Source: Oscillospiraceae bacterium (GTDB taxonomy: Bacteria > Bacillota > Clostridia > Oscillospirales > SIG627). From it: DNA of 64,000 nucleotides. Positions 6,069 to 58,231 of this stretch are shown here, piece after piece (positions within the stretch are counted from its first letter, which is position 1; every line of letters starts with the position of its first letter). Made by a program: the position numbers and the translations under genes. The notes below the pieces were generated by a model, which had not been told where the DNA came from, searched no databases, and saw nothing but the letters and a program-made list of their open reading frames with translations. The stretch spans positions 93,005 to 157,004 of the forward strand of contig SVQO01000002.1 of assembly GCA_015065325.1 (NCBI GenBank). Reading direction: 5' to 3'.

Positions 6069-8315
6069 TTATTTCCCGGGGAAAAGCGGGTAGTTTTCCT
6101 TGAAGTTGACGTAGAACAGAAGATAAATGGCATCGTCCGAATCCACCTCTCCGCTGGAGTCAAAGTCTGCAGGCTGGCCGAGGGAATACGACTCGGGGAA
6201 GTTGATGGCAAAGAGAAGGTGAATGGCATCCTCCAAAGTAACCTCACCGTTGCCGTCCGTATCGCCCACCACGTAAGGAGGTCTCTCAAAGCCGCAAGCG
6301 TCGCAGATCAGATCGGTGTGATCATCGTAGGCGTGCGGTGTGCGGCTGCTTTCATCGATCGCGGAGCAGACGGAGCACTTCATCCAGTGATTCTCGTCGT
6401 CCTTATCCCGAACCGAGTAATCGTGGGTGATGACTCTTACGTTGTCGCAAGCGTCGCAGGTGGTATCGCAGGCGTTGTCGTAGGTATGAGCGGTGCGGCT
6501 GCTTTCGTCGATCGCGGAGCAAACGGAGCACTTCATCCAGTGATTCTCGTCGTCCTTGTCACGAACCGAGTAATCGTGGGTGATGACTCTTACGTTGTCG
6601 CAAGCGTCGCAGGTGGTATCGCAGGCGTTGTCGTAGCCGTGGGGGGCACGGCTGCTTTCGTCGATCGCAGAGCAGACGGAGCACTTCATCCAGTGATTCT
6701 CGTCGTCCTTGTCACGAACCGAGTAATCGTGGGTAATGACTCTTACGTTGTCGCAAGCGTCGCAGGTGGTATCGCAGGCGTTGTCGTAGCCGTGGGGGGC
6801 ACGGCTGCTTTCGTCAATTGCGGAGCAAACGGAGCACTTCATCCAGTGGGTCTCATCGTCCTTGTCACGAACCGAGTAATCGTGGGTGATGACTCTTACG
6901 TTGTCGCAAGCGTTGCAGGTGGTATCGCAGGCGTTGTCGTAGGTATGAGCGGTGCGGCTGCTTTCGTCAATTGCGGAGCAGACGGAGCACTTCATCCAGT
7001 GATTCTCGTCGTCCTTGTCACGAACCGAGTAATCGTGGGTAATGACTCTCACGTTGTCGCAAACGTCGCAGGTGGTATCGCAGGCGTTGTCGTAGCCGTG
7101 GGGGGCACGGGTGCTTTCATCTGCGGCAGAGCAGACAGAGCACTTCATCCAGTGGGTCTCGTCGTCCTTGTCACGAACCGAGTAATCGTGGGTAACGGTT
7201 CTTTCGTATCCGCAGTCATCACAGACGGCGTCGCAGGAATTGGTATAGCCGTGGGAGGTCACGTTGAACCGTTCGGTACAGCCGGCGGTTTCACAAAGGC
7301 TCCAATGGCCGTTTTCATCTCCTTCGAATACAGCGGAAGCCTTGCACTCGTGGACGGTAACCGTAGCGGTGGAGATCACGCAGTCCCCTGCCTTGCGAAG
7401 CTCGGGAACGATCTGATAATCGTCAAAGACGGCGTCTTCCTTCGCCTTCAGAACCAGCGTAAACACGTCACCGGAAAGGGAAAATTCAGAAGTAGCCGCA
7501 AACACGGCTTCCTTCTCGGGATTGACGGATTGCAGGGTTGCCTTTTCCAAAATGGTTTCGCTCCAGGTGCCCGATACCCACTCAAAGGCGGAAGGATCGT
7601 AGGCGCCGCGGAAATCCATACCGAAACCTCTGACCGTCACGGGAGAGGCGTTGGTCAGGGCGAAGGTCATCTGCACCTGATCGCCGCGATGAATGACATA
7701 ACGGTTGGTGGGCAGAGCACGGACAGCTCCGCAAGCAGAGCAGGTAGTATCCTGAGCTCCGTCGTATTGATGCTTGACGTAGCGCTTGGCGCTGCAAGCG
7801 TTACAGACGCTGTCACAAGCATTGTCATAGGTATGAGGCAGAGAAACGGTATCCCCCTCCGCGACGGCATCCAGTTTGCTGCTGGGAAGGACCTTGATCT
7901 CATAGCTTTCGGCGCAGGTCAGCGAAACCAAAGGCTTGAGCACGATGGAAAATATATCGCCGGAAACGTCAAAAGAACTCATGCCGCCGAAGGCTGCCTG
8001 GGTTCCGGGATTGACAGGCGTCAGCATAGAGCCTGCCTTTACCTGCTGAGACCAGTCACCGCTGACCCACTCGAAAACGGTGTGATCGTAGGCAGTGGCA
8101 TAGTCCAAACCAAAGCCTTGGGTATGGACCGTGGTATTGAGGGAAACGGTTACGGTAACAGTGCCGTCTTCTGCATAATTGTCGGTGGAAACACGGGTCT
8201 TCAGCACCACCTCGGACGCGGCGTTGCCTTCCGTTGCAAGAGGAATTCCCGCCACGGGACCAAGCACCAGGAGAAAAGCCATGAAGAAAGCAGTCAGTTT
8301 CTTGGTTACTCGCAT
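6069..8315 (-). CDS. Secreted scaffoldin-like protein: two cohesin-like domains, Cys/His-rich 51-aa repeats, C-terminal dockerin-like module
   Basis: Signal peptide MRVTKKLTAFFMAFLLVLGPVAG. Two segments fit the cohesin pattern (GTVTVTVSL..QGFGLDY..YDHTVFEWVSG and VQMTFALT..RGFGMDF..YDPSAFEWVSG). At least 6 near-identical repeats HDYSVRDKDDENHWMKCSVCSA..HGYDNACDTTCDACDNVRVIT. The C-terminus has paired calcium-loop-like segments GDTDGNGEVTLEDAIHLLF and ADFDSSGEVDSDDAIYLLF. Confidence 0.8.
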   Translation of the reverse strand: MRVTKKLTAFFMAFLLVLGPVAGIPLATEGNAASEVVLKTRVSTDNYAEDGTVTVTVSLNTTVHTQGFGLDYATAYDHTVFEWVSGDWSQQVKAGSMLTPVNPGTQAAFGGMSSFDVSGDIFSIVLKPLVSLTCAESYEIKVLPSSKLDAVAEGDTVSLPHTYDNACDSVCNACSAKRYVKHQYDGAQDTTCSACGAVRALPTNRYVIHRGDQVQMTFALTNASPVTVRGFGMDFRGAYDPSAFEWVSGTWSETILEKATLQSVNPEKEAVFAATSEFSLSGDVFTLVLKAKEDAVFDDYQIVPELRKAGDCVISTATVTVHECKASAVFEGDENGHWSLCETAGCTERFNVTSHGYTNSCDAVCDDCGYERTVTHDYSVRDKDDETHWMKCSVCSAADESTRAPHGYDNACDTTCDVCDNVRVITHDYSVRDKDDENHWMKCSVCSAIDESSRTAHTYDNACDTTCNACDNVRVITHDYSVRDKDDETHWMKCSVCSAIDESSRAPHGYDNACDTTCDACDNVRVITHDYSVRDKDDENHWMKCSVCSAIDESSRAPHGYDNACDTTCDACDNVRVITHDYSVRDKDDENHWMKCSVCSAIDESSRTAHTYDNACDTTCDACDNVRVITHDYSVRDKDDENHWMKCSVCSAIDESSRTPHAYDDHTDLICDACGFERPPYVVGDTDGNGEVTLEDAIHLLFAINFPESYSLGQPADFDSSGEVDSDDAIYLLFYVNFKENYPLFPGK
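6276..7193 (-). repeat. Six in-frame 153-bp tandem coding repeats (51-aa Cys/His-rich module)
   Basis: The marker CATCCAGTG (codons H-W-M on the minus strand) recurs at 6381, 6534, 6687, 6840, 6993 and 7146, an exact 153-nt period. The copies are nearly identical at nucleotide level. Confidence 0.9.
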
Positions 8316-8368
8316 ATTTGTTCTCCTTATCGTTTTTTATCCCCTGAAAAAGGGTAGAATACAGAACT

Positions 8369-8397
8369 ATTGTATCGTTTTTTCCTTTTTCTGTCAA
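8369..8397 (-). promoter_or_regulatory. Sigma-A-type promoter for 6069..8315
   Basis: The minus strand reads TTGACA, a 17-nt spacer, then TACAAT. Confidence 0.65.
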
Positions 8398-8437
8398 GAT
8401 AGAAATTCATCGAAAAGCTTCCGACGGACTGCCAATT

Positions 8438-9385
8438 TTACCCATTGACCGCGTTTTGCGCCTTTCCGTTCAACCAGGCGGCAAGATTGTCCCGCAAGAT
8501 CCCGATCAGACGGGCGCGGGTCTCCTTGGGTGCCCAGGCGATATGAGGGGTCAAAATGCAGTTTTTTGCCCCGATCAGCGGGCAAGTACTGCTTTGCGGC
8601 TCCACGGTCAGAACGTCCCCGGCAAAGCCTGCGATCACGCCGCCGTCCAAAGCGTCACGCAGTGCTTGCTCGTCTATCAGCCCGCCGCGGGCAGTATTGA
8701 TGAGGAAGGCACTTTTTTTCATTTTTGCAAGGCTTTCACGGGAAATGAGCTTTTCCGTCTCCGCCGAAAGGGGCAGATGCAGGGAAACGAAGTCACTGCG
8801 TGCGAAAAGCGCGTCGAGAGAAACGTGCTCCCGCCCACATTCTTTTTTTCTTCGTGTGTGGTAGATCACCTTCATTCCAAAGGCTTCCGCAAGCCTTGCA
8901 ACCTTTTCACCGATGCTTCCCATTCCCACAAGTCCCAGGATCTTCCCCTCCAGCTCCGTCAAAGGATAGGGATAGTAGCAAAAAAGCTCCGAGCGGGTCC
9001 AGTCCCCACGCGCGGTAGAAGCAGTATACGCCTCCAGGCTGGTGGCAAGGGCAAGGATAAAGGTCATGGTCATCTGCGCCACGGCAGAAGAAGAATAGTC
9101 GGGAATATTGGTCACCGTTACCCCCCTCTCGCGGCAGGCGGCAAGATCGATGTTGTTATAGCCGGTCGCCATAACGCCGATATATTTTAAATTCGGGCAG
9201 GAATCCAGCAGTGCCGGGGTCACCGACACCTTACTGCACAAAAGAACCTCGCTGTCTCCGATGACCGCGGGCAGCTCCTCCGGAGAAGGCTTTCCGTAAT
9301 AGGAGACCTCCCCCAGCTTTTCGATCTCGGCAAAGGACAGATCGTCCCCGCAGACGCTTTTCCATTCACAGGCACAAATTTTCAT
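8438..9385 (-). CDS. D-isomer-specific 2-hydroxyacid dehydrogenase (glycerate dehydrogenase-like)
   Basis: 315 aa with the NAD-binding GLVGMGSIGEKVA motif, the RGDW block and a catalytic-His region (LTPHIAWA) typical of the family. Confidence 0.85.
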   Translation of the reverse strand: MKICACEWKSVCGDDLSFAEIEKLGEVSYYGKPSPEELPAVIGDSEVLLCSKVSVTPALLDSCPNLKYIGVMATGYNNIDLAACRERGVTVTNIPDYSSSAVAQMTMTFILALATSLEAYTASTARGDWTRSELFCYYPYPLTELEGKILGLVGMGSIGEKVARLAEAFGMKVIYHTRRKKECGREHVSLDALFARSDFVSLHLPLSAETEKLISRESLAKMKKSAFLINTARGGLIDEQALRDALDGGVIAGFAGDVLTVEPQSSTCPLIGAKNCILTPHIAWAPKETRARLIGILRDNLAAWLNGKAQNAVNG

Positions 9386-9520
9386 ACAGTCACGCTCCTT
9401 TTCCCTATTTTACCATAGCTTGCTCCGCAGTTCAAGTCGGAGACGGTATTTTCGGACCGTACCTTCAACTTTTCTTTGTCTTGTTTCAAATATATTTATT
9501 TTACTTTTGACCCGAATCCC

Positions 9521-9549
9521 TTGACTTTTTCGGGGCGGAAAGGTACAAT
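9521..9549 (+). promoter_or_regulatory. Sigma-A-type promoter of the 9611..15104 gene string
   Basis: TTGACT (9521..9526), a 17-nt spacer, then TACAAT (9544..9549). Confidence 0.65.
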
Positions 9550-9553
9550 AAAA

Positions 9554-9597
9554 CTCGGTAAAAAGGAATTGTACCGAGAATGGTTTTCCATTCTCGG
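9554..9597 (+). promoter_or_regulatory. 5' leader with two overlapping, mutually exclusive hairpins
   Basis: Hairpin 1 pairs CTCGGTA (9554..9560) with TACCGAG (9572..9578). Hairpin 2 pairs CCGAGAATGG (9574..9583) with CCATTCTCGG (9588..9597). They share CCGAG, and the RBS GGAAGGAAGG follows directly. Confidence 0.4.
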
Positions 9598-9610
9598 AAG
9601 GAAGGTATTT

Positions 9611-11107
9611 ATGAGTCGAATCAAATTTGGCTGGAGCGAAGCAAACCTCTTGCCGCAAGGAAAAAAAGTGGACCTGGCAGGTCAGTTTTACGAGCGCATC
9701 ACCGACGTTGTGGAGGATGAGATCACCGTCACCGCCCTTGCTATGGAATGCGGTGAGGACGCGGCCATCTTCTGCGGTTGCGATCTGGTTTCCACCAGCC
9801 ATCAGCTTCTCCTCTCCGTCCGCGAAAAGCTCGCATCGAGACCCGATATTCCCGCGGATAAAGTAATCGTCAGCGCCATTCATACGCACACCGCACCTCA
9901 GTACGCGCGCCGTTCCGACAGCATCGGAAAAGGCAGTCGCGGTCTTTCTGCGCTGACCGATCTTTTGCCCAACGTAAAATACGAGCGGCTGGAAAGCTAT
10001 GAGGGAGACGATCTGTTCGAAGGGGAAGAAGCCCACGATTTTTTTGCTTCCCGCATCGCCGAGGCAGCCATTGCCGCCTGGGATAACCGCAAAGAAGGAG
10101 CGTACGCCGCAGGCTTCGGCAGAGCCGCCGTGGGTATGTGCCGCAGAGTTTGTTACGATGACGGCAGTGCAAAAATGTGGGGCGATACCTCCTTTGCCAA
10201 CTTCGAGACTTTGGAAGCAGGCAACGACAGCGGCATTGAACTGATCTTCACCTATTCCGCCGACAAGACTCTGACCGGTGTCATTGCAAACGTAGCCTGC
10301 CCCGCACAAGTATTAGAGCATCGCAGCTTCGTATCCTCCGACTACTGGGGCAAGGTAAAGAAAATGCTCCGCGAAAAGCTGGGTGAGGATCTGTTCGTTC
10401 TGGGTCTTTGCTCTGCCGCAGGCGATCAGTGCCCCCGTGATATGATCCGCTGGGTACAGCCGGAAAGTCCCATCAATGACCCCAACATCAAAAGAACCAA
10501 CCCCGTAGAGCGCGGCGCCGATCCTTCTATGTTTGATCTTTCCGGGTGCATCAAGGCAGCTCGCCGCATCAAGGACGAGATCCTGTACGCATTGGAGGAG
10601 GTTACCGAAACCGTTTCCGATACAACCCTCTCCCATACCGCTTACATCCTGGATTTGCCTCTTCGCCGTGTAAGCATTGCAGAAAAAGAAAAGGCTGAAG
10701 AAGTCATTCAACGCTTTGCCGAAGCAAACCGCGGAAAGACGATCAACTTCGAGGATAAGGCAAGAATGCACATTCACGCAGGCACCTTGAACCGCTACGT
10801 TCTGCAACAGCAATTCAACACCTTCCCCATCGAGGTCCATACCCTCCGTTTGGGCAACATTGCCTTTGCCACCAACCCCTTCGAGCTGTTTCTTGACTAC
10901 GGCAACAAGATCCGTGCAAGAAGCCCCGCCAGCCAAACCTTCCTGATCCAGCTTTGCTGTGGATCTTGGGGTTATCTTCCCACGAAAAAGGCAGAGGAAG
11001 GAAGTCACTATTCCGCCTACGTTTCCTCCGGCTATGCGGGACACGATGGCGGCGACCTTTTGGTGCGCAAGACCCTAACCGAGCTGAACAAACTGTTTCA
11101 AGACTAA
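9611..11107 (+). CDS. Leaderless (cytoplasmic) distant homologue of the HxH hydrolase family (ceramidase-like N-terminal domain candidate)
   Basis: ATG at 9611 follows GGAAGGAAGG, and the upstream part of the tracked ORF (9476) covers the promoter. No signal peptide. Shares block order with the array genes: VTALAMECGEDAAIFCGCDL, SAIHTHTAPQ, and IAFATNPFELF..GNKIRARSP..GSWGYLPT..EGSHYSAY. Confidence 0.65.
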   Translation: MSRIKFGWSEANLLPQGKKVDLAGQFYERITDVVEDEITVTALAMECGEDAAIFCGCDLVSTSHQLLLSVREKLASRPDIPADKVIVSAIHTHTAPQYARRSDSIGKGSRGLSALTDLLPNVKYERLESYEGDDLFEGEEAHDFFASRIAEAAIAAWDNRKEGAYAAGFGRAAVGMCRRVCYDDGSAKMWGDTSFANFETLEAGNDSGIELIFTYSADKTLTGVIANVACPAQVLEHRSFVSSDYWGKVKKMLREKLGEDLFVLGLCSAAGDQCPRDMIRWVQPESPINDPNIKRTNPVERGADPSMFDLSGCIKAARRIKDEILYALEEVTETVSDTTLSHTAYILDLPLRRVSIAEKEKAEEVIQRFAEANRGKTINFEDKARMHIHAGTLNRYVLQQQFNTFPIEVHTLRLGNIAFATNPFELFLDYGNKIRARSPASQTFLIQLCCGSWGYLPTKKAEEGSHYSAYVSSGYAGHDGGDLLVRKTLTELNKLFQD

Positions 11108-11141
11108 ATACAAAGCAAAAAAAGATAGAGGAGATCCGAAG

Positions 11142-12431
11142 ATGAAATTTACTGCAGCAGGAGACGCTCTTTGCCAGAGAAGACTCCCCCAAGACTACGA
11201 AGGCTTTGCCGAGATCCGCGACTTCATTCTGAAGGGAGACGGAAGATTTTTCAATCTGGAAACCACCCTTAACTATGAAGGTGAAGTTTACGCCAACCAG
11301 TTCTCCGGCGGTACCTGGGTACGCTGTACCCCCGAGGTTGCCGAGGATATGCTGGACTACGGCTTCAATATGACCAATATCAACAACAACCACGCCATGG
11401 ACTTCGCTCACGAGGGCATGATCAAGACCATCGAATACGTGGAAGAAATGGGTATCATTCAGGCAGGCGTAGGTATGAACCTGCACCAGGCAGCCGCTCC
11501 CGCGTATTTGGAGACCAAAAACGGCAGAATTGCCCTCATCGGCATCTCCACCAGCTTCAAGCCCCCTATGATGGCAGGGGAGCAGAGCCGCAGAATTCCC
11601 GGCCGTCCCGGTGTCAACGGTGTCCGCATCAGCCAGAAGCTGATGGTCCCCGAGGTAGCCTTCAAAACCGTTAAGGAGATCGGCGAAAAGACCCATATCA
11701 ACGACCCCAAGAATATTACCCGCGCCGAGGGGTATTTTCCCTGGCCCGAGGAAGGAACCGCAGAGCTGGGTGAGCTGAATTTCGTCCGCGGTGAGGAATT
11801 CAAGATCGTCAGTGAGCTGAACAAGGCGGATCTCAAGCGCGTTACCGATTCCATCCGTGAGGCCCAAATGCAGGCAGATTACGTAATGGTCTCCCTCCAC
11901 GCTCACCAGATCGTAGGCTCCGACAAGCACAGCGTGCCCGCCATTCTCGAGGAGCTTTGCCACGCCCTGATCGACGCAGGTGCCGACGCAGTGGTAGGTC
12001 ACGGTCCTCATCTGGTCCGCGCCATCGAGGTCTACCGTGAAAAGCCCATCTTCTACTCTCTGGGCGACTTCCTCATTCAGCTGTATCAGCTTCCCATCGC
12101 TCCCGAGGATTTCTATAAGAACTACGGTATGAATTCCGATTCCGCCGTGATCGAGCTTTTGAAAAAGAGAAGCCGCGACTTCTCCTGCGGCCTGATGGAG
12201 GATCCCAAAATGCGCGAATCCATCATCCCCTACTGGGAGACCGACGAGAACAAGAAGCTGACGAAGCTCGTTCTGATGCCCGTTACCGCAAGCCTGCGCG
12301 AGGGCAAGCATCTGGAAGGTCTTCCCCAACCCTCCAAGGATACCGCCTTCATCGAAAAGCTGGCAGATCTTTCCAAGCCCTACGGCGTGAATATCAAAAT
12401 GGAAGACGGACTTGCCGTCTGCACCTGGTAA
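11142..12431 (+). CDS. CapA/PGA_cap family metallophosphatase-like protein
   Basis: 429 aa. The NINNNHAMDFAHEGM block and ...HAHQ...GADAVVGHGPH... blocks are typical of CapA-family proteins. Confidence 0.7.
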   Translation: MKFTAAGDALCQRRLPQDYEGFAEIRDFILKGDGRFFNLETTLNYEGEVYANQFSGGTWVRCTPEVAEDMLDYGFNMTNINNNHAMDFAHEGMIKTIEYVEEMGIIQAGVGMNLHQAAAPAYLETKNGRIALIGISTSFKPPMMAGEQSRRIPGRPGVNGVRISQKLMVPEVAFKTVKEIGEKTHINDPKNITRAEGYFPWPEEGTAELGELNFVRGEEFKIVSELNKADLKRVTDSIREAQMQADYVMVSLHAHQIVGSDKHSVPAILEELCHALIDAGADAVVGHGPHLVRAIEVYREKPIFYSLGDFLIQLYQLPIAPEDFYKNYGMNSDSAVIELLKKRSRDFSCGLMEDPKMRESIIPYWETDENKKLTKLVLMPVTASLREGKHLEGLPQPSKDTAFIEKLADLSKPYGVNIKMEDGLAVCTW

Positions 12432-12445
12432 GGAGATTTTCACCC

Positions 12446-13585
12446 ATGAAAGCCGATCTGAAAGCATATTTGGAGGAATGTCTTCCCGAGCTCCATCAGC
12501 TTTTAAAGCAAATGTGCCTCATCCCTGCCCCCAGCGGATTTGAGGACGAGCGAGCAAAATTTGTGAAAAATTGGTTGGAGGAAGCAGGTGCCGAGGGCGT
12601 TATCATCGACGAAGCGAAGAACGTGATCCTCCCCATGAACTGTGACGGCAAAACGGATCTCACCGTCTTTGCCGCCCATACCGATACCGTATTTCCCGCA
12701 GAAACGGAGCTGAAGTTCACCAAGGACGAGAAAAACTTCTATTGTCCCGGTGTAGGCGACGACACCGCTTGCCTTGCCATGATGATGATGGTGATCAAGT
12801 ACCTCCTCCAAAAGAAGCTCCGTCCCGAGGGAGGCGTCCTTTTCGTGGCAAACGCCTGCGAGGAGGGCTTGGGCAACCTGAAGGGCACCCGCCGTCTCTT
12901 CGAGGATTATAAAGGCAGGATCGCCAAGTTCTACACCTTCGACGGCAGATACGTCTATACCAACGATCATTGCGTCGGCTCCCACCGCTATATGATCGAG
13001 TGTACCACCGAGGGTGGGCACTCCTTCAACGCCTTCGGCAACGCCAACGCCATTGCCACTCTTTCCCGCCTGATCGCCGATCTCTACACGGTGCAGGTTC
13101 CCGCAAAGGAAGGCACCAAGACCACCTACAACGTGGGAATGATCGAAGGCGGAACCTCCGTCAACACCATTGCACAAAGCGCAAAAATGCTTTACGAGTA
13201 TCGCTCCGACGATGCCGAGTGCCTTGCCGTAATGGAAAAGGCCTTCAAGGAAAAGCTGGCGGCGGCTCAGGCACAGAATTACGGCACTTTTTCCGTGGAG
13301 CTGGTAGGCGTTCGCCCCTGTCAGGGTGAGATCGACGAAAAGGTCCACAAGCCGATGGTCGATCGTGTCAAGGAGATCTGCACCGAGGAGACCGGCGTGG
13401 AATGCGTTTCCAAGTCCGGCTCCACCGACTGCAATATTCCTATGTCCGTAGGCGTCCCCGCCGTTTGCGTAGGCACCTATCAGGGCGGCGGCGCACACAC
13501 TCTGGAGGAGTGGTTGGAGATCGCCTCCCTCCCCATCGGTCTTCGCATCACCGCGAGACTGATCCTGGATTATTTCAACGCATAA
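12446..13585 (+). CDS. M20 family peptidase (PepT/ArgE-like)
   Basis: 379 aa with the FAAHTDTVF, PGVGDDTACLA and ANACEEGLGNLKG metal-ligand blocks of M20 peptidases. Confidence 0.8.
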   Translation: MKADLKAYLEECLPELHQLLKQMCLIPAPSGFEDERAKFVKNWLEEAGAEGVIIDEAKNVILPMNCDGKTDLTVFAAHTDTVFPAETELKFTKDEKNFYCPGVGDDTACLAMMMMVIKYLLQKKLRPEGGVLFVANACEEGLGNLKGTRRLFEDYKGRIAKFYTFDGRYVYTNDHCVGSHRYMIECTTEGGHSFNAFGNANAIATLSRLIADLYTVQVPAKEGTKTTYNVGMIEGGTSVNTIAQSAKMLYEYRSDDAECLAVMEKAFKEKLAAAQAQNYGTFSVELVGVRPCQGEIDEKVHKPMVDRVKEICTEETGVECVSKSGSTDCNIPMSVGVPAVCVGTYQGGGAHTLEEWLEIASLPIGLRITARLILDYFNA

Positions 13586-13640
13586 ACTCAGCAGGGGGCT
13601 GTCAAAGTCCCCTGCTATCTTCATTTTTCGGAGGTCAAAT

Positions 13641-15104: not shown

Positions 15105-15113
15105 AGAGATTCA

Positions 15114-15223
15114 GGGGACTTTTGAAAAAGTCCCCCGAACCCCTCAAAACTTTCAAACGAAAAATCCCTTTTATAAAGTTTTCGGAGGTTTGGAACCCCT
15201 TTTTCAAAAGGGTTCCAAGAAAA
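15114..15223 (+). repeat. Bipartite hairpin element, copy 1 (candidate structured RNA or protein-binding repeat)
   Basis: Hairpin A is GGGGACTTT-TGAA-AAAGTCCCC (15114..15135). After a 49-nt spacer comes GAGGTTTGGAACCC..GGGTTCCAAGAAAA (15185..15223). Same layout as 30282..30391. Confidence 0.6.
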
Positions 15224-15424
15224 GAATTTCTTTCAAAAACTTCCAAAAAAAGAAAAAACACCCCTTTCCCACCCTATTCCCCACCCCCTCAAAAAAAATA
15301 CAATTTTTCCCCACCCCAAAAAAGAGAGGTGGGTGGGGACTTTCGGCAGAAATCTCGGGATAATATAGATAGCAAATGAAAGGGAACGATAGTTCCCTAA
15401 TTTGACACCAAGGAGGAATGAAAC

Positions 15425-18400
15425 GTGAAAAAACGGATATTAAGCTTATTGCTGACGTTGGTGATGCTCATAGGTCTCGTGCCCACGGCGGCATTCCCCG
15501 TCTTTGCGGAGGAGTCGGAGGAGCAGCCTAGCGTTGACAGCGAGGGCAATATCCTTATCTGGTCCTACGAACAGCTCGTCAGTGTTGCACAGAATGCCCG
15601 GATCAATGAAAGCTATCGCCTGGCGACGGATATTTACCAAACGGATAACTCCAACGATCTGGGAATTTGGGTCAGGTGCGACAGCCTTTGGCTGGATCTG
15701 AACGGTCACGTGCTGTCCCGCGAGACAAGGTCGCTGGATTCGGCGTTGTTTTTCGTGTGTGATGGTTCAACGCTGAACATCTATGACTCCTCGCCCGACA
15801 GTACCGGCACCTGCATCTACAATAATAACTATGTTTCTGACCCTTGCAGCGTGATCAATAACAGTGGCGGCAATGTGATCATCAACGGAGGCAACTACAT
15901 CGTCAAAATGGACAACCCCTCAGCCGAAGCCGCCGTATTATACGGCACTTCGGGTGAGTTTACGGTGTACGATGGCTACTTTGACTCTACCCAAGCAAGT
16001 AACGGCAACGCAGTGAAAATGCATTATAGTAACTCTCTCTACGATGAGCCCGACTGTATTATCTACGGCGGTAGGTTCTATAGCAAAAAAACTTGTATCG
16101 AAGCGGGGAGTCTTGCCAACTATTCCGATGTGTATTATCCCTATGTGTTTGTGTTGGGCGGCGAATTTTACACCAAAAGGATCAACGGCGATGAGTATGA
16201 AGGTAATTTCGCCTATTGTAACAACGGCTGGGGACGTGTCATTGCGGCAAACGGTCTGGTGCCCGCGAGATCGTTGAATGCGAGGGATCAGCGGTACGCC
16301 ACGGGCACCACGACAACGGTTGAAACGCTGACAGGAGAGCCCGGCAACGGCTGGGAATATGCTACCGTGACGCCCCCGCCTCGCATCGTAAGCGAGCAGC
16401 TGCCGAAGGAAGACCGCTGGTATTCCCTGTGCTGGCGTGACTACCTGAAAGCGGCAAAAGAGAATGAAAGCTACGATTTTTGGACTGCGAACCAAGAGGC
16501 GATCGAAGCGGAATTGGCAAAGATCGACGGATTTTCGGTCAATATATTCGATACCGAGGTCACTCTCAGCATTGAGGATAAGAAAGAGATCGATTCCGTT
16601 CGCTGGTACGTTTCCGCCTCTCCCGACTCAGGCTGGACAGAGCTTGTCGATTATCAAAACATCACCGGCCCCGTCACGCAGGATCCTCCAAATCCCGGGA
16701 AAACTCTTTATTATCGAGCTGTGGTCACCCGCAAAGGCGGCACCGAATACGAGGATATTATCTACGTAAACTGCAAAGAGCCTAAAAAGGTCAATGTTTC
16801 CGCCGATTTCTCCGGCACACCGTCAAACGCAACCTCCAACACCGACGGTGTTAAGGTAACCTCTACCAAGTGGTATAAGAAGAGCGGTTCCGACTGGGTA
16901 CAGCTCAGTGCATCCGACACCATCAAGGAAGGATATGCCTACCGCTGTGAGATAACTGTTGGCGCAACCGGTACTTTTACGTTTGCAGACGGCTACACCG
17001 TAGAAATTAACGGCATTGCCGCAACCAAGAAATCCGGCAATACCTGGTATGTGGACAGAACCCTTACCGGATATACAAGTTACGTAGACGTTTACGACAT
17101 TGCTCTGCCGGAGGCAGGTGCAAAGCCTGACTTTACCTATAACGACGAGGACTGCCGTCACAGCAGTGTTGCTCTTGTGGAGTGGTTTGAGTGTGATAAG
17201 GACGGCAAGAAACTGAGCGGTGCTTTATCCGCAGACTACAAATTCAAAGAGGATGCCTACTACCGTCTGGAAGTCACCGCAGTACCGGATGCAAATTATA
17301 AGTTTGATACAAGTACCCTTGGCTTCTATATCGGTCCAAAGGCAGTTCAGTTCTACTACCCCTATCAGGATACTACTTATCCTGACAGTGTGACCGGTTG
17401 GAAAGTATACCACGTGGACGATGCCAATGGCACCTATACCGTTCAGATCGGAGATATTACCCTGAAGGACGGCGACTATCTTGCAAACAATGCAACAGCT
17501 GTTACGACCACCAAGCCCTCCGGCGGCTATGCCTACTATAAGGACGGCGTGCTGACGCTGAACAATTTCGTAGCCGCAAAGCTTGTTCGCTACTATGAAA
17601 GATATCTTGAAGTAGAGCTGATCGGTGAGAACAAGATCGGCGCCATTGCAGATTACTACTATTGGGACACTACCTCCAATGATTATTTCACCGGTCTGGA
17701 GTTTTGCGGTGACGGCGATCTGGAATTTGATGACTACTACGATGCCCCGTGCTGCAACGTCAGCGTTAACGGTGACGTGTTCTTCAATGGCAGCGGCGAC
17801 ATTCTTCTCGATGCTGAATTTAATTGTTTCCAGTATACCGATAACGTGATCATCAATGACGGTTATGTGTATTGCTACTGTTCTCAATTCTGTGTGTTCG
17901 GTGATGATACGAACATCACGGTGAACGGCGGCAAGCTGAAAATGTATGACGGCGGCAGCTGGTACGATTATTTCATCTGTGACGGTGATCTTTTGATCTA
18001 CGCAGGCAGCGTGTACGTAAGTACTGATCCGAATAAAACCGAATTGGCAGACTGTGTGCCTTGGGACGGCGTAACTGATCTCAATACCTATGAATGCGTA
18101 TGGATCGTGGAGGAAAGTGCGACTGTCACCCACACCGTAACCTTTAAGGTAGACACTACTACCGTAGCCACCAAGACTGTTGAGGGCGGCAAGACCGTAA
18201 CTGCACCTGCCGATCCCGTGAAGGGCGATTACGACTTCTTCGGTTGGTATACCGACGACGGCGAACTCTTCGATTTTGTTACTCCCATCACCACAGATCT
18301 CACCTTGACCGCAAAATTCGGTTATAACGTATTCTTCTGGCTGGATCCTTCTGATGAATATCCTGTTGCATGGCGTGATGCAGAACCGGGACAGACAATT

Positions 18401-18739
18401 GAGGAACAAGGCGAACCCGGTCGGGTGGGTATGGTCTTTGTCGGTTGGTTTACGGATCCCGTCGGCGGCACGAAGTTCGACTACTCCACACCCATCACGG
18501 GGCGTCTTAACCTTTATGCAAGATTCGCGCCCGCTTCCTCTTACCTCAAGGGCGACGTAGACGGAAACGGCGTGGTGGATATGGACGATGCCATTTATCT
18601 CTTGTTCGCCATCAACTTCCCCGAAAGCTACCCCTTAAATCAGCCCGCAAACTTTGACGGAGTAGGCGAGGAGGATATGGATGATGCCATTTATCTTCTG
18701 TTCCACGTGAATTTCTCTGCAAATTATCCGCTACATTGA
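15425..18739 (+). CDS. Large secreted protein: beta-helix-like repeats, two Listeria-Bacteroides-type repeats, C-terminal dockerin-like module
   Basis: GTG start 8 nt after AAGGAGG, with a signal peptide. G/N-rich segments (NNSGGNVIINGGNYIV; ITVNGGKLKMYDGG). Two repeats of the type TVTFKVD..GKTVTAPADPVKGDYDFFGWYTDDGELFDF. The C-terminus has GDVDGNGVVDMDDAIYLLF and NFDGVGEEDMDDAIYLLF. Confidence 0.8.
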   Translation: MKKRILSLLLTLVMLIGLVPTAAFPVFAEESEEQPSVDSEGNILIWSYEQLVSVAQNARINESYRLATDIYQTDNSNDLGIWVRCDSLWLDLNGHVLSRETRSLDSALFFVCDGSTLNIYDSSPDSTGTCIYNNNYVSDPCSVINNSGGNVIINGGNYIVKMDNPSAEAAVLYGTSGEFTVYDGYFDSTQASNGNAVKMHYSNSLYDEPDCIIYGGRFYSKKTCIEAGSLANYSDVYYPYVFVLGGEFYTKRINGDEYEGNFAYCNNGWGRVIAANGLVPARSLNARDQRYATGTTTTVETLTGEPGNGWEYATVTPPPRIVSEQLPKEDRWYSLCWRDYLKAAKENESYDFWTANQEAIEAELAKIDGFSVNIFDTEVTLSIEDKKEIDSVRWYVSASPDSGWTELVDYQNITGPVTQDPPNPGKTLYYRAVVTRKGGTEYEDIIYVNCKEPKKVNVSADFSGTPSNATSNTDGVKVTSTKWYKKSGSDWVQLSASDTIKEGYAYRCEITVGATGTFTFADGYTVEINGIAATKKSGNTWYVDRTLTGYTSYVDVYDIALPEAGAKPDFTYNDEDCRHSSVALVEWFECDKDGKKLSGALSADYKFKEDAYYRLEVTAVPDANYKFDTSTLGFYIGPKAVQFYYPYQDTTYPDSVTGWKVYHVDDANGTYTVQIGDITLKDGDYLANNATAVTTTKPSGGYAYYKDGVLTLNNFVAAKLVRYYERYLEVELIGENKIGAIADYYYWDTTSNDYFTGLEFCGDGDLEFDDYYDAPCCNVSVNGDVFFNGSGDILLDAEFNCFQYTDNVIINDGYVYCYCSQFCVFGDDTNITVNGGKLKMYDGGSWYDYFICDGDLLIYAGSVYVSTDPNKTELADCVPWDGVTDLNTYECVWIVEESATVTHTVTFKVDTTTVATKTVEGGKTVTAPADPVKGDYDFFGWYTDDGELFDFVTPITTDLTLTAKFGYNVFFWLDPSDEYPVAWRDAEPGQTIEEQGEPGRVGMVFVGWFTDPVGGTKFDYSTPITGRLNLYARFAPASSYLKGDVDGNGVVDMDDAIYLLFAINFPESYPLNQPANFDGVGEEDMDDAIYLLFHVNFSANYPLH

Positions 18740-18755
18740 AAAAAACACAAACGAC

Positions 18756-18789
18756 AAAAAAGACAGACTCTCCCGAGTCTGTCTTTTTC
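18756..18789. terminator. Bidirectional terminator between convergent genes
   Basis: Stem AGACAGACTC / GAGTCTGTCT with loop TCCC, an A-run upstream and a T-run downstream. Confidence 0.8.
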
Positions 18790-18799
18790 GTTTTACTCC

Positions 18800-20074
18800 T
18801 TACAATACCCGAACGGGTCCTACGGGACGAATGGAAAGCACCATACAAGCACCCTCTCCGAACACGCCCTCCATCAACGCGCGAAACTCCTCTACCTTTT
18901 CCGCGGGAATGAAGTTTTGCGTGGTACCGCCGAAGCCGCCGCCGTGAATGCGGCAGGCTCCCTTACCGTCCAAAAAATTTGCGGCAAGGTTCAGTGCAAC
19001 GGCGGCTCCCTGATCTGCGTTCTCCATGGGGATCCAGACGTTGCCGAGTGCCTGAAAGGAGGACTGCCCGGAACGGTTCACAAGGGCAAGGAATCGGCAA
19101 AAATCTCCGTCCTTCAACGCCTTTGCCTGCTCCGTTACGCGGTCGGTCTCCAGACAGAAGTGCAAGGCGGCAAGAGCGGCCTCGTCCCCTGCTTTCCTGC
19201 GGACGCGGGGCAGCTGAGACAAAAGAAGATCAAAGGAGATCTCACAAAGCTTCTCCTTGCCGAAAAGCTTTGCCACCTGCTTCATACGCTGAGGGATCGC
19301 GGCGTATAAATGGGTTAAATCGGAGTGGTCGCCCCCCGGCTTCACAAGGCACAGCTTATGGCCGGACGCGGCAAAGGAAAAGGGAATGGGCTCGATGACG
19401 GGATTTTTCTCATCGGCAAAATCCATCATACTGATCCCGCCCACGGCGCAAGCCGCCTGATCCATCAAGCCACAGGGCTTTCCGAAGTATTCGCGCTCGG
19501 CAAACTGAGAGATTTTTGCGATCTCTACCGCTCCCACGTTGCCGGAATTGTAAAGGTGATTGAAGACCGTTCCCAAAAGCACCTCGAAAGCGGCGGAGGA
19601 GGAAACACCGCTTCCCTTGGGCACACAGCTCTCCGTGTAAGCGGTAAAGCCGCCCACGGCAAAGCCGCGGTCAAGAAAGCCCTTTGCCACACCGCGGATC
19701 AGAGCGGCGCTTTTTCCGAATTCCCCTTTTTTCACGGCAAGGTCGGACAAGCACACGGTATCGGGAGAGAATCCCTCGGAATGCACGTGGACCGTATCTC
19801 CGTTTTCACGCGCCACCACGGCGATCACGTCAAAATCCACACTGCCTGCCAGCACTCTGCCGCCGTTGTGATCCGTATGGTTTCCGCCGATCTCCGTTCT
19901 GCCGGGGGCAGAAAACACCGCCACGTCCTTTTCTGCTCCGAACAGTGCCTCGAAGGAATCCAAAGCCTTCAAATACCTTGCCTTCTGCACCTCGGCACGG
20001 TCGCCGTAAAGTGTGGTAAAAACGGCGTCTGCTTGATTCTCTTTTATATAAGCTCTCGCTTCCCGTAACTTCAT
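18800..20074 (-). CDS. galK: Galactokinase-family GHMP kinase
   Basis: PGRTEIGGNHTDHNGG (galactokinase signature variant) and the GHMP motif PKGSGVSSSAAFEV. The ATG at 20074 is 8 nt after GGAGG; the tracked start at 20080 is a TTG too close to the RBS. Confidence 0.7.
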   Translation of the reverse strand: MKLREARAYIKENQADAVFTTLYGDRAEVQKARYLKALDSFEALFGAEKDVAVFSAPGRTEIGGNHTDHNGGRVLAGSVDFDVIAVVARENGDTVHVHSEGFSPDTVCLSDLAVKKGEFGKSAALIRGVAKGFLDRGFAVGGFTAYTESCVPKGSGVSSSAAFEVLLGTVFNHLYNSGNVGAVEIAKISQFAEREYFGKPCGLMDQAACAVGGISMMDFADEKNPVIEPIPFSFAASGHKLCLVKPGGDHSDLTHLYAAIPQRMKQVAKLFGKEKLCEISFDLLLSQLPRVRRKAGDEAALAALHFCLETDRVTEQAKALKDGDFCRFLALVNRSGQSSFQALGNVWIPMENADQGAAVALNLAANFLDGKGACRIHGGGFGGTTQNFIPAEKVEEFRALMEGVFGEGACMVLSIRPVGPVRVL

Positions 20075-20154
20075 ATTCAATACCTCCCTGAATTCTGCCT
20101 TTTATTATATAGTTTGACAAAAAGAGTGTCAAGCGTATCGACAAAAAATACCAC

Positions 20155-20183
20155 TTGAATTATTGTACGGTTTATAGTACAAT
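20155..20183 (+). promoter_or_regulatory. Promoter of the WYL-regulator operon with an embedded inverted repeat (candidate operator)
   Basis: TTGAAT (20155..20160), a 17-nt spacer, then TACAAT (20178..20183). The inverted repeat ATTGTAC (20162..20168) / GTACAAT (20177..20183) covers the spacer and -10. A second palindrome, TTGACA-N7-TGTCAA, lies at about 20114..20132. Confidence 0.55.
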
Positions 20184-20206
20184 AAGGACGAAAAGGAGGG
20201 ATCACC

Positions 20207-21205
20207 GTGGCAAAATCATCCCGACAAAAACAAAAAATTCTATATTTGGCAAAATTTTTTCTGGAAGAAACCGACGAGGACCATCCCGCAAGTATGAGTG
20301 ACATTCTTGCCTACCTTTCCCGCGCAGGCATTGAGGCGGAACGCAAAAGCATTTATTCCGATCTGGAGGAGCTGAGTCTGTTCGGTCTGGATATCGTAAC
20401 GCTCCGAGGCAGAGGCGGCGGATATTTTTTGGGAGAACGGGATTTTCAGTTGCCCGAGGTTCGCCTTTTGGTGGATGCAGTGCAGTCCTCCCGCTTTCTC
20501 ACCCGCAAAAAAAGCGAGGAGCTGATCAAAAAGCTTCGCTCCCTCACCTCCCGACACCAATCCTCGGCACTAAGCCACACCGTGTCCGTTTCCGGACGGA
20601 TCAAAACCATGAACGAAAGCATCTACCGCAACGTGGATGCCATCGGCGGTGCCATTGAGCGGGGACACAAGATCCGTTTTCAGTATTTTGAATGGACGCC
20701 TGAGGGCAAAAAAAAGCTTCGCCGCGACGGGGAGCGCTACACCGTTTCCCCCTTCTTTCTGATCTGGGACAACGAGAATTATTACCTGATCGGCGTAGAG
20801 GAAAAAAGCGGCGAAAAACGGCATTTTCGCGTGGATAAGATGCTTTCCATCGAGGAGGTCGACCTGCTTCGCCAAGGGAAAGAACTTTTGGAGGGCGTAT
20901 CCCCCGCAGACTACGAAAACCGCGTATTCGGTATGTACGCAGGGAAGGAGGAGCGAGTCACTCTGCGATGGAGCAATTCCCTCAGCGGCGTCTTTTACGA
21001 CCGCTTCGGCGGCGATATGACTGTTCGCAAGGATGGAGACGGCTTTATCTCCTCCCACCGACTGATGATCAGCCCCGTATTTTACGCCTTTTTGATGGGC
21101 TTCGGCGGAGACGTGAAGATCCTGGAGCCCCAATGGGTCAAGGAGGAATTTTTCAACCTTGTGAAAAAGAATCTTGCCCCTTACGAAAGTGAGAACACCC
21201 TATGA
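20207..21205 (+). CDS. WYL domain transcriptional regulator (HTH-WYL)
   Basis: GTG start 6 nt after GGAGGG. N-terminal HTH-like segment (MSDILAYLSRAGIEAERKSIYSDLEEL). WYL-type core YTVSPFFLIWDNENYYLIGVEEKSGEKRHFRVDKM. Confidence 0.8.
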   Translation: MAKSSRQKQKILYLAKFFLEETDEDHPASMSDILAYLSRAGIEAERKSIYSDLEELSLFGLDIVTLRGRGGGYFLGERDFQLPEVRLLVDAVQSSRFLTRKKSEELIKKLRSLTSRHQSSALSHTVSVSGRIKTMNESIYRNVDAIGGAIERGHKIRFQYFEWTPEGKKKLRRDGERYTVSPFFLIWDNENYYLIGVEEKSGEKRHFRVDKMLSIEEVDLLRQGKELLEGVSPADYENRVFGMYAGKEERVTLRWSNSLSGVFYDRFGGDMTVRKDGDGFISSHRLMISPVFYAFLMGFGGDVKILEPQWVKEEFFNLVKKNLAPYESENTL

Positions 21206-22347
21206 AAAAAAGCTTACTTTTTCTGTCCCTTTCCCTGTTGCTTTGCACTCTGTTGAGCTTCGGGGCACAGGGCGCCTCCAAGGGAAGAATGTCCTTGAGC
21301 GGCGAGCTGACGGATCTGAAGCCGGGCAGCACCGTGGAGCTTACGGTTCTCCTCAACCAAAATCCCGGCGTCACCTCTCTGCGCTGCACGGTGGGCTTTG
21401 ACCCCAAGGTGCTGAAATTCGTTTCCGCAAAAGGAACGAAGACCCTGCCCGATTTCAGCTTTGAGGAACGGGAGGACGGAGTCCTTCTTCGATGGAACAG
21501 CGAAACGGATACCGTAGCCGCAGGCGAGGTGGCAAAGCTCACGCTGCGGGTAAAAAAGAACGCGCTTTTCGGAGACAGTGCCGTGACCCTTTCCGTTTCC
21601 GAAGCACTGTTCGACGCACAAAACAGCCGCGGGGAAGCCGTCCCCTTTGATACCGCGGGAATGAGCTTTACCCTGTCCTGTCCCCACGACGATCCCGAAC
21701 AGACCGTCGAGCTGGAGCCCACCTTCGAAACGGAGGGAATTCTGAAGCAGACCTGTCCCGTTTGCGGAAACGCGGATCTTCTTCCTCTGCTCCCCGAGGT
21801 GGAAAGCGCCGACGGCAGAGTGAAGGTCGCCTTTGCCGCAGGAGAGTTTTCCAACGGCAACCGCGTGGACGTGTTCATCGATCCCCTCTTTGCAGTCACG
21901 GAGGAGAAGGAAGCGCGGAAAATGCTGGGCAGCGATATGCTCCGTGCCTTTCGCATCCGTATTCTGAAGGACGGGGAGCCTTATATCCCCATTCGGGACT
22001 GCACCGTCAGCCTCCGCTACGACGCCTTTCTGCCCGAGGGGACGGTGCTTTACCTTCTGATGGACGGCGGTGCCTTACAACCGAAATTCACCCGCGAGGG
22101 ATCGGTCCTGACGTTTTCTTACAGCCCCGAGCTGTTCGCTCTGGTTGCCCGCACCCCTTACGAGGAGCCCGAGGTGCCTACGACCACCGCAAAGCCCACC
22201 ACCGCCACCGTCCGTCCCACCACCACCGAGGATCCCGTGGAAAAAGCACGGAGAAAGGATCTTTTTCTCATCGCCGCTGGCTGTGTTACCCTGCTTTTGT
22301 GCGGGACGGGAATGATCCTGCTTCTCGGGAGAAGAAAGCGTTTCTGA
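21202..22347 (+). CDS. Membrane-anchored cohesin-like surface protein
   Basis: ATGA overlap with the WYL gene stop. Signal peptide. LKPGSTVELTVLLNQNPGVTSLRCTVGFDPKVLKFVSAKG follows the cohesin consensus pattern (KPGDTV..V......G....F.Y DP.VL). Pro/Thr linker PTTTAKPTTATVRPTTTEDP, one C-terminal TM helix, then RRKRF. Confidence 0.7.
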   Translation: MKKSLLFLSLSLLLCTLLSFGAQGASKGRMSLSGELTDLKPGSTVELTVLLNQNPGVTSLRCTVGFDPKVLKFVSAKGTKTLPDFSFEEREDGVLLRWNSETDTVAAGEVAKLTLRVKKNALFGDSAVTLSVSEALFDAQNSRGEAVPFDTAGMSFTLSCPHDDPEQTVELEPTFETEGILKQTCPVCGNADLLPLLPEVESADGRVKVAFAAGEFSNGNRVDVFIDPLFAVTEEKEARKMLGSDMLRAFRIRILKDGEPYIPIRDCTVSLRYDAFLPEGTVLYLLMDGGALQPKFTREGSVLTFSYSPELFALVARTPYEEPEVPTTTAKPTTATVRPTTTEDPVEKARRKDLFLIAAGCVTLLLCGTGMILLLGRRKRF

Positions 22348-22585: not shown

Positions 22586-23077
22586 ATGGCTCATTTAAGT
22601 GACGCGGCAGTAGCAAAGATCAACGAGATCTGCGATCGCTATGCCGACGAAAGAACACCCTTGATGATGATCCTGAGTGATATCCAGAAGGAATACGGCT
22701 ATATTCCCCTGGAGGTTCAGGAACTGGTCTCCGCAAAAACCGGAGTCAGCGTTGCCGAGATCTACGGTGTAGTAACCTTCTACTCCTTCTTCTCTCTCAA
22801 GCCCAAAGGAAAGTACATCATTGGCGTATGCCTCGGTACTGCTTGCTACGTAAAGGGTGCACAGCAGGTTATCGACAAATTTTCCGAGATCCTGAAGATC
22901 GCTCCCGGTGAGACCACCGAAGACGGTCTGTTTACCATTGATGCACTCCGCTGCATCGGTGCCTGCGGCATCGCTCCCGCAGTATCCATTAACGGAAAAG
23001 TTTACCCCAAGGTAGAAGTAAAGGCAATCCCCGGTATCATCGAGGAACTGCGCGCTGAGGGAGGTGCAAACGCATGA
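22586..23077 (+). CDS. hydC: [FeFe]-hydrogenase NuoE-like [2Fe-2S] subunit
   Basis: 163 aa, thioredoxin-like 2Fe-2S family with Cys pairs in GVCLGTACYV and RCIGACGIAP. First gene of a three-gene set with NuoF-like and HydA genes. Confidence 0.9.
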   Translation: MAHLSDAAVAKINEICDRYADERTPLMMILSDIQKEYGYIPLEVQELVSAKTGVSVAEIYGVVTFYSFFSLKPKGKYIIGVCLGTACYVKGAQQVIDKFSEILKIAPGETTEDGLFTIDALRCIGACGIAPAVSINGKVYPKVEVKAIPGIIEELRAEGGANA

Positions 23078-24957: not shown

Positions 24958-24972
24958 GGAGGAAAGCGGATC

Positions 24973-26849: not shown

Positions 26850-26912
26850 TTGAGTTGCAAAAGAAAATTAAAAAAGGTATTCTATAGATATTACAGAAAG
26901 GAGCGAAACGTT

Positions 26913-39530: not shown

Positions 39531-39608
39531 AAAAGTCTCCTTTTCATGGAAAGAGTTGATTTTGCTTATTATAGCACGCTCTCGGCACAAAATGCGTGAA
39601 TAATTTGT

Positions 39609-44054: not shown

Positions 44055-44113
44055 AGCTTCTCTCCTTGTGGGAAAATTCTGATTTCATCATATCACAAGA
44101 AAAAACAAAGGTC

Positions 44114-44156
44114 AACCGAATTTTCCATTGCAAAATAAAAAAAGCCGTGATACAAT
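44114..44156 (+). promoter_or_regulatory. Array promoter 1 with a degenerate box
   Basis: Box AACCGAATTTTCCATTG (44114..44130), TTGCAA (44128..44133), a 17-nt spacer, then TACAAT (44151..44156). Confidence 0.6.
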
Positions 44157-44185
44157 CAAAGAAGAAACACGAAAGGAGCCTCTTA

Positions 44186-45625: not shown

Positions 45626-45637
45626 AAGGAGTTTATT

Positions 45638-47077: not shown

Positions 47078-47089
47078 CCGAGTAAATAT

Positions 47090-48532: not shown

Positions 48533-48537
48533 TTACA

Positions 48538-49812: not shown

Positions 49813-49859
49813 AGCAAAATAACCGTACAGACAGAAATAGAAAGAAAGGACTGTCTCCC

Positions 49860-51317: not shown

Positions 51318-51326
51318 ATCAATACC

Positions 51327-51359: not shown

Positions 51360-51370
51360 CGAATCGGTAA

Positions 51371-51416: not shown

Positions 51417-51451
51417 ATACATATACCTTCATATAAAAGGAGAAGTGTTTC

Positions 51452-58225: not shown

Positions 58226-58231
58226 AAACAG

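Follow-up and report, generated by a model that had tools for sequence, protein, structure and literature searches.

Three genes within 16 kb of a 64-kb stretch of DNA from a metagenome-assembled genome (MAG) of an uncultured Ruminococcaceae/Oscillospiraceae bacterium (contig SVQO01000002.1, positions 93,005 to 157,004; the whole stretch is called the window below) appear to carry the complementary modules of a cohesin-dockerin system, and the question they raise is what such modules are doing where no cellulase or amylase is at hand. An earlier reading of the sequence, which we call the original prediction, saw in the three products, here named P1, P2 and P3, an adaptor, a dockerin-bearing surface protein and a membrane-held anchor, and proposed that they form a small adhesin-type assembly distinct from a cellulosome. 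Our answer, to which we assign a probability of about 0.65, is that the window carries components of a cohesin-dockerin system that is not cellulosomal and that displays proteins on the cell surface; most likely, adhesin-like proteins rather than fibre-degrading enzymes are hung on a membrane-anchored hook.

The three open reading frames (ORFs) lie where they had been placed and carry modules as described. P1 and P3 are identical to two "hypothetical proteins" in NCBI, E7580_01255 and E7580_01300. Their cohesins exceed the gathering score of 24.1 bits for the Pfam family PF00963, at 38.8 bits over two stretches in P1 and 35.5 bits in P3, and an iterative search joined them in one family. The two cohesins of P1 match each other at E ~5e-22, while a profile of the P3 family gave weak matches to solved cohesins (4ums_A, E 0.0025). 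By our own hidden Markov models (HMMs) and a motif scan, these are the only cohesins in the window, and the only two DAI[YH]LL modules there are those of P1 and P2. Both P1 and P2 begin with a signal peptide. P1, with its two cohesins, has the form of a multi-cohesin scaffoldin, and the same order of signal peptide, two cohesins and dockerin recurs in four related proteins (P0023, P0029, P0044, P0077). P3 has the form of a transmembrane (TM)-anchored, or "non-SLH", anchoring scaffoldin and not that of the sortase- or SLH-held ScaE and OlpB type: Pfam gave no S-layer homology (SLH) match, and no LPXTG motif was seen in its C-terminal region by eye or flagged by a regular expression. A sortase-type sorting signal was considered for P3 and rejected, as the hydrophobic segment is not preceded by LPXTG. 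The anchoring by a TM helix that had been suggested for P3 is thus retained.

The nature of the C-terminal modules of P1 and P2 required more care. The profile check suggested with the original prediction gave a divided result, positive for cohesin and negative for the Pfam dockerin family PF00404 (Dockerin_1), for which P1 reaches 14.4 bits, short of the gathering score of 22.9, and P2 gives no match. Despite this near-silence of Pfam, the dockerin identity stands. The two modules are 70% identical, so their description as close relatives was correct, and both 12-residue Ca2+ loops (D-x-[DN]-x-[DN]-G-x5-D) and both helices can be read in each, with a Val at position 5 of the second loop in P2. 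HHalign aligned the variant with canonical dockerins, taken from homologues of P2's own head domain, over 57 columns at 97.9% probability (E 3.6e-13). A 17-member profile of the variant matched 19 solved dockerin chains in the PDB at E <= 0.01 (best 4uyp_B, 6.9e-8), and a five-member profile of the clade also matched solved dockerins, 4uyq_B at E 1e-6. Most homologues of the P2 head carry classical GDVNGDG dockerins at the same C-terminal position, whereas one (P0174) carries the variant there; in the architecture of these proteins the variant thus takes the place of a classical dockerin. On the strength of these alignments we regard the modules as true dockerins of a divergent type, with the clade consensus GDxDGNGxVDxDDAIYLLxHxxFPxxYPxNQxxDFDGNGxVDxDDAIYLLxHxxFPxxYPL. 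Binding would presumably depend on Ca2+. The two halves, at a fixed spacing of 32 residues, share 57-64% identity within P1 and within P2 and 72% on average in the family, and such near symmetry would fit a possibly dual binding mode.

The genomic context of the clade links these dockerins to cohesins. In 1.06 Mb of fetched loci, a cohesin ORF begins directly downstream and on the same strand in 27 of 81 evaluable dockerin genes, for which our own estimate from ORF density gives a chance expectation of about one. In 14 of the 27, the product of the downstream ORF has a signal peptide, a cohesin and, at its C-terminus, a TM helix followed by a Lys-rich tail. Among the upstream dockerin genes, ten have matches to LRR_5, Flg_new, cohesin, Big_5 or M23, while a match to a glycoside hydrolase (GH) family was seen in none. 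A cohesin is also present in 39 of the 150 best dockerin matches, and in most of these no more than about 20 residues separate its end from the dockerin. This linkage is the strongest indirect evidence both for a pairing between the dockerin clade and this family of cohesins and for TM-helix anchoring in the membrane as a family trait.

Two observations on these neighbouring and fused genes may be recorded here. In the fused cohesin-dockerin cassettes (P0014, P0016, P0022, P0024, P0025, P0032, P0043, P0090, P0117, P0129, P0132, P0143, P0147 and others) the cohesin stops some 7-20 residues short of the dockerin, and the cassette mostly forms the C-terminal end of large proteins that are otherwise unrelated; such cassettes could serve for daisy-chaining or as an intramolecular clasp. 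A subset of the dockerins has a tail of about 20 residues after the module, with a basic and then acidic end (...ERKKEDED, ...KRDEDE, ...RKREEEE). It is found in, among others, L019, L021, L036, L037, P0014, P0016, P0024 and P0043, and on four dockerin genes lying directly upstream of TM-anchored cohesins.

The clade is large, and its cargo is of a consistent kind. A word-indexed search with the 67-residue dockerin returned only five short fragments, and the census was taken instead from a profile search run exhaustively over 1.84 billion representatives. This gave 4,761 clade representatives (clusters at 50% identity) at E <= 1e-3 and 2,474 at E <= 1e-10, so that the clade comprises at least 2,474 at the stricter threshold. 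In the 150 hits listed the module usually sits at the C-terminus, and N-termini resembling signal peptides are common. A Pfam scan of 73 of the best clade matches found LRR_5 leucine-rich repeats (LRR) of the BspA type in 25, cohesin in 22, LRR_8 in 17, Flg_new in 10 and Big_3 in five, along with a few peptidoglycan hydrolases and transglutaminases. GH families appeared in two of the 73 proteins (one GH16, one GH5), and Dockerin_1 was matched (E <= 1e-3) in nine. The cargo of the clade thus seems mostly adhesin-like and rarely a glycoside hydrolase, in line with the adhesin-type cargo originally proposed. The relatives returned from GTDB species genomes all belong to MAGs of uncultured gut Clostridia (Eubacteriales, Acutalibacteraceae, Oscillospiraceae, Ruminococcaceae), and the hosts named in the record titles of clade-bearing MAGs are goat, roe deer, sheep and water buffalo. 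There are several variant dockerins per MAG, seven to nine or more in some, together with several TM-cohesins; a metagenome scan for an organism-level census gave at least 49 loci, mostly distant. The two carriers with names in NCBI, P1 and P0303, are both called "hypothetical protein".

As a separate observation, a CxxC "knuckle" (typically HxYDxxxDxxCNxCGYERPPY) lies at most 35 residues upstream of 60 of 150 variant dockerins, compared with 18.5% of windows drawn at random from those proteins; examples occur in related proteins from P0006 to P0155 and at residues 661-680 of P1.

These parts suggest the following arrangement. P3 would be exported and its signal peptide cleaved, leaving the C-terminal helix in the cytoplasmic membrane with its basic tail inside and one cohesin exposed on a short Pro/Thr stalk. 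P1 and P2 would be secreted, each ending in a Ca2+-loop dockerin of the divergent clade. P1 could dock by its dockerin and offer two more cohesins at the tip of a Cys/His repeat stalk of variable length, adding valency and reach. P2 could dock on a cohesin of P1 or P3, its predicted beta-helix head pointing outward on an Ig-like and Flg_new stalk as a ligand-binding or adhesive element. The near symmetry of the dockerin halves would allow two modes of docking. Of this picture, the identity of the modules (by homology), the signals for export and anchoring, the extent and cargo of the dockerin clade and its operons with TM-cohesin genes are shown here; which dockerin would take which cohesin in this organism, the surface exposure, and an adhesive rather than catalytic role of P2 are inferred.

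Several findings weigh against this arrangement. Housekeeping genes separate the three (a 2-hydroxyacid dehydrogenase, PGA_cap, an M20 peptidase, a melibiase-like enzyme and a galactokinase), and they do not form a conserved set: relatives retain only the order WYL regulator, P3, hydrogenase. The MAG JAZODR has neither P1 nor P2 near its P3, and in JAZLXV galK directly follows the melibiase-like gene, so that P2 is missing there. The operon-paired dockerins are of the subtypes TFFPEDYP and TLLPExYP, unlike the VNFP/INFP of P1 and P2. The failure of P1 and P2 to reach the Dockerin_1 threshold belongs here as well, as does the coupling of P3 to a WYL regulator, for which our explanation does not account. 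Finally, the stalk of P3 is short for crossing a thick Gram-positive wall.

One alternative holds that the modules are real and that P1, P2 and P3 are not mutual partners, each binding partners encoded elsewhere, with their proximity within 16 kb incidental. It would explain the lack of conserved synteny and the different subtypes of the operon-paired dockerins. The same MAG also encodes at least one further cohesin-dockerin protein elsewhere (E7580_07130), and the dockerin and TM-cohesin numbers in other MAGs, given above, offer many possible partners. Nevertheless, the dockerins of P1 and P2 are of one subtype at 70% identity and therefore probably share a receptor, and P3 and P1 supply the only cohesins of the 64 kb. 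Moreover, in known systems the genes for cohesins and dockerins frequently lie apart. JAZODR has a P3 orthologue and, elsewhere, a dockerin of the VNFP subtype seen in P1 and P2, although this co-occurrence is only a hint. We consider the incidental-neighbour alternative unlikely, while granting that the presence of E7580_07130 means that the assembly need not be small: of the "small adhesin-type assembly distinct from a cellulosome", the distinctness holds and the smallness is unproven. The original prediction was largely correct as to the kind of system, while a functional tie among these three particular genes is presumptive.

A second alternative turns on P2. Its head might be a docked polysaccharide lyase, esterase or hydrolase, in which case the window would encode a minimal, cellulosome-like degradative complex. 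A fold search with the full-length model was dominated by generic matches to tandem immunoglobulin (Ig) and fibronectin type III (FnIII) domains, indicating that the middle region resembles the tandem Ig/FnIII stalks of adhesins, and the head alone was therefore predicted again. The top Foldseek matches of the head are all right-handed beta-helices and all weak (best E 0.047; TM-score <= 0.39). They include pectate and alginate lyases, a pectin methylesterase and tailspike depolymerases, but also the Lactobacillus reuteri serine-rich repeat protein (SRRP) adhesin and autotransporter passengers. The fold is common to polysaccharide lyases and esterases as well as adhesins, which is a further point against our explanation, and the beta-helix, in a head that AlphaFold2 predicts with confidence, is supported at the level of fold class; the Listeria-Bacteroides repeats proposed for the same protein, by contrast, are plainly there (69.7 bits). 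The many invariant Asp, Asn and Arg residues of the head and the sugar-related neighbours of the three genes (melibiase-like, galactokinase and NAGLU-like) would also suit an enzyme, and the head could be carbohydrate-active. However, neither Pfam nor NCBIfam assigns P2 to any enzyme (CAZyme) family, the neighbouring sugar enzymes have no signal peptides or dockerins, and glycoside hydrolases are rare in the cargo of the clade. The melibiase-like neighbour was considered as dockerin cargo and rejected for want of both signal peptide and dockerin. The window holds no dockerin-bearing CAZyme, its GH-like genes being without dockerins, so the stated absence of cellulase or amylase cargo holds. 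Judging from the predicted structure and its matches, an adhesin role for P2 seems a better guess than an enzymatic one, and we regard the display of an enzyme as decidedly improbable.

The last alternative, that the C-terminal module is an EF-hand-like Ca2+-binding tag with a cohesin-independent role in wall-polymer binding or sorting, could draw on its mostly C-terminal position, its score below the Pfam dockerin threshold and the conserved acidic tail in a subset of members, but it is very improbable indeed given the clear homology to solved dockerins, the strong linkage and frequent fusion to cohesins, and the ability of the variant to replace classical dockerins on the same head domain.

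Features of the three genes and their immediate neighbours, in positions of the 64-kb window
Feature	Position	Strand	Description
P1	6069..8315	-	748 aa; signal peptide, cohesin, cohesin, 51-aa Cys/His repeats (about 5.7), dockerin; putative secreted bivalent adaptor; NCBI MBE6712126.1, E7580_01255
P1 dockerin	6081..6281	-	aa 679-745; two DxDxxGxxxxxD loops, DAIxLLFxxNFxxxYxL helix after each; variant clade
P1 tandem repeat	6325..7193	-	153 nt (51 aa), 5.7 copies, 91% DNA identity
P1 cohesin 2 (aa 201-314)	7374..7715	-	PF00963; own cohesin HMM E 2.7e-30
P1 cohesin 1 (aa 40-153)	7857..8198	-	PF00963 above gathering score; own cohesin HMM E 1.6e-29
P2	15425..18739	+	1104 aa; secreted; signal peptide, predicted beta-helix head, helical linker, Ig/FnIII-like tandem, two Flg_new, dockerin
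P2 N-terminal head (aa 34-330)	15524..16414	+	predicted right-handed beta-helix; AlphaFold2 (AF2) pLDDT 88.2, pTM 0.90
P2 Listeria-Bacteroides (Flg_new) repeats	18131..18529	+	PF09479 69.7 bits, two stretches; TIGR02543
P2 dockerin	18536..18736	+	aa 1038-1104; variant clade; AF2 helices aa 1053-1064 and 1085-1097
WYL/WCX-domain regulator	20207..21205	+	stop codon overlaps P3 start (ATGA); pairing kept in relatives
P3	21202..22347	+	381 aa; signal peptide, cohesin, CxH...CxxC insert, second domain, Pro/Thr linker, TM helix, RRKRF; candidate membrane anchor
P3 cohesin (aa 32-142)	21295..21627	+	PF00963 35.5 bits vs gathering score 24.1; own HMM E 3.6e-33
P3 C-terminal TM helix (aa ~353-375)	22258..22326	+	hydropathy scan; basic tail after; kept in 14/14 family members
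HydABC-type hydrogenase operon (apparent)	22586-26778	+	three genes: NuoE-like, NuoF-like and [FeFe]-hydrogenase domains

The repeat region of P1 was absent from the original prediction. Its unit, HxYDNACDTTCDxCDNVRVITHDYSVRDKDDxxHWMKCSVCSAIDESSR, is rich in Cys and His, and alleles of 748, 697 and 595 residues in other samples differ in length by whole repeats. Goat and ruminant samples, JGI 3300018495 among them, contain identical genes. The repeat region probably serves as a spacer or stalk, with a number of copies that differs from strain to strain, and it may bind metal. A sequence search found no significant relative of the repeat in the PDB. Pfam matches to PAS_3 and zf-C17orf113 were regarded as artefacts of repetition, since no single stretch passes alone.

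P2 is a mosaic, with residues 1-513 common to one set of proteins and 454-965 to another; one relative is named "InlB B-repeat-containing protein". The best Pfam stretch of its Flg_new region spans residues 903-964, and the end of the second repeat, near residue 1035, is an estimate. The gene looks inserted between the melibiase-like gene and galK, because JAZLXV lacks it at that position, and the spacer upstream of it (15105-15424) contains two GC-rich hairpins.

The P3 family has 14 members of 30-57% identity with a conserved architecture, including a CxH...CxxC insert, similar to the knuckle upstream of the dockerins, that is invariant throughout (C160, H162, C185, C188). In the relatives examined, P3 always lies between the WYL/WCX regulator and the HydABC-type hydrogenase, and the WYL-P3 pairing is kept even where homologues have only 30-33% identity (L081, L082, L132). 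From the ATGA overlap, regulator and P3 are predicted to be translationally coupled.

Further along the window, a NAGLU-like protein (alpha-N-acetylglucosaminidase family; 26850-29141, forward strand) lacks a dockerin and any obvious signal peptide. It is followed by thirteen paralogous genes of about 430-520 residues (44066-63050, forward, and 38025-39590, reverse), twelve of them in one tandem array interrupted by a single unrelated gene (55881-56744). Compared with one another by phmmer, they give E values of 1e-108 to 1e-233; lipoprotein-type signals (...LCLPLCAC) are present in most, and several show sub-threshold matches to PF04734, the neutral ceramidase N-terminal domain, at 19-26 bits against a gathering score of 32.1.

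We would tentatively go one step further, though with less than even confidence, and suggest that the DDAIYLL...YPL dockerins and the TM-cohesins, often encoded immediately downstream of them, belong to one general system that is widespread among uncultured gut Clostridia and largely escapes Pfam, and that tethers adhesins of the BspA-LRR, Flg_new and beta-helix kinds to the membrane without covalent bonds. Many gut anaerobes would then use cohesin-dockerin pairs chiefly for adhesion and for the architecture of their surface rather than for breaking down polysaccharides, and in this lineage the translational coupling of the anchor to a WYL-domain regulator would place display under regulation. 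Should the pairing prove real, abundant uncultured gut Clostridia would possess a general surface-display device for adhesin-like proteins that depends on neither sortase nor SLH domains. Standard annotation would miss most of it, given that only nine of the 73 clade members match Dockerin_1, and counts of cellulosome-like systems based on PF00404 would be too low. Surface interactomes in gut metagenomes, and attachment to host or particles, could then be read better, and the clade would be a source of new orthogonal cohesin-dockerin pairs for synthetic biology.

By the strict definition of a cellulosome or amylosome, the system falls outside: CAZyme cargo is not seen, the P2 head being a putative beta-helix without an assigned family, and a search of Pfam and NCBIfam gave no carbohydrate-binding module (CBM) family match in P1, P2 or P3. 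The architecture is nevertheless less unusual than the original prediction implied, because there are precedents in the literature. Minor et al. 2024 (PMC11557425) described proteins with one cohesin and a C-terminal TM helix that could act as non-SLH anchors, as well as presumably non-cellulolytic "scaffoldin-containing" microbes (Lachnoclostridium sp. MSJ-17, Herbinix luporum, Clostridium cibarium); Lachnoclostridium sp. MSJ-17 has up to 39 dockerin proteins, one of them a lignocellulose-active dockerin-bearing glycoside hydrolase (DocGH). P3 resembles those anchors in its single cohesin and in the C-terminal TM helix presumed to hold it in the membrane. Those systems were found with standard cohesin and dockerin signatures, whereas the dockerin clade described here escapes PF00404, its cargo is dominated by adhesin-like proteins, and a dockerin gene followed by a cohesin-TM gene recurs as an operon. 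The same paper (PMC11557425) describes C-terminal Coh1-Doc1 bi-domain units in ScaO of Acetivibrio cellulolyticus and in A. mesophilus WP_128706311.1. In these scaffoldins a cohesin with a dockerin directly after it stands at the C-terminus of a large multidomain protein, as in most of the 39 of 150 clade matches with a cohesin; P1, unlike them, has a long repeat stalk between its cohesins and its dockerin, and P2 has no cohesin.

Ruminococcus difficilis (Minor et al. 2026 preprint, 10.64898/2026.02.05.704116) has two anchoring scaffoldins with C-terminal TM helices, scaffoldins carrying Ig-like, LRR and mucin-binding domains, and 80 dockerin proteins with a single DocGH of hemicellulase activity; the preprint treats this assembly as atypical and also covers TM-anchored single cohesins in Ruminococcus spp. 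The R. difficilis system is read as starch-degrading, with amylase-dockerin fusions and CBM26, while no amylase or CBM was seen here, and the organism here is an uncultured Ruminococcaceae/Oscillospiraceae MAG. In Ruminococcus flavefaciens FD-1, Rincon et al. 2010 (PMC2930009) tabulate 222 dockerin sequences with 28 LRR modules among them, and propose that the group 4 dockerins, which have internal symmetry, help in structuring the cell surface. As presented there, the ScaC-type monovalent adaptor of FD-1 combines cohesin and dockerin in one protein as P1 does; unlike the present case, FD-1 has a sortase-linked ScaE anchor and many GH, carbohydrate esterase (CE) and polysaccharide lyase (PL) enzymes. 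Its dockerin groups differ from the DDAIYLL...YPL clade, as judged from the text of that paper and not from aligned FD-1 sequences.

Comparison may also be made beyond plant-fibre degraders. The toxin complexes of Clostridium perfringens resemble the present case in pairing cohesins and dockerins outside plant-fibre degradation, on proteins directed at host surfaces. They assemble by cohesin and dockerin (X82) modules, with GH84 and GH33 cargoes; unlike here, then, the cargoes are glycoside hydrolases, and the dockerins are of a different type.

The concept is thus already known: TM-anchored single cohesins, cohesin-dockerin adaptors and dockerin sets poor in hydrolases have all been reported (Minor et al. 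2024; Minor et al. 2026 preprint; Rincon et al. 2010). A literature search found no paper holding the string "DAIYLL", and four features appear to be undescribed in the searchable literature: the clade's sequence signature, the number of its members, the fact that PF00404 hardly detects it, and the operon in which a cohesin-TM gene comes after a dockerin gene. Because the concept has these precedents, the advance over the known systems is one of breadth and subtype rather than of principle.

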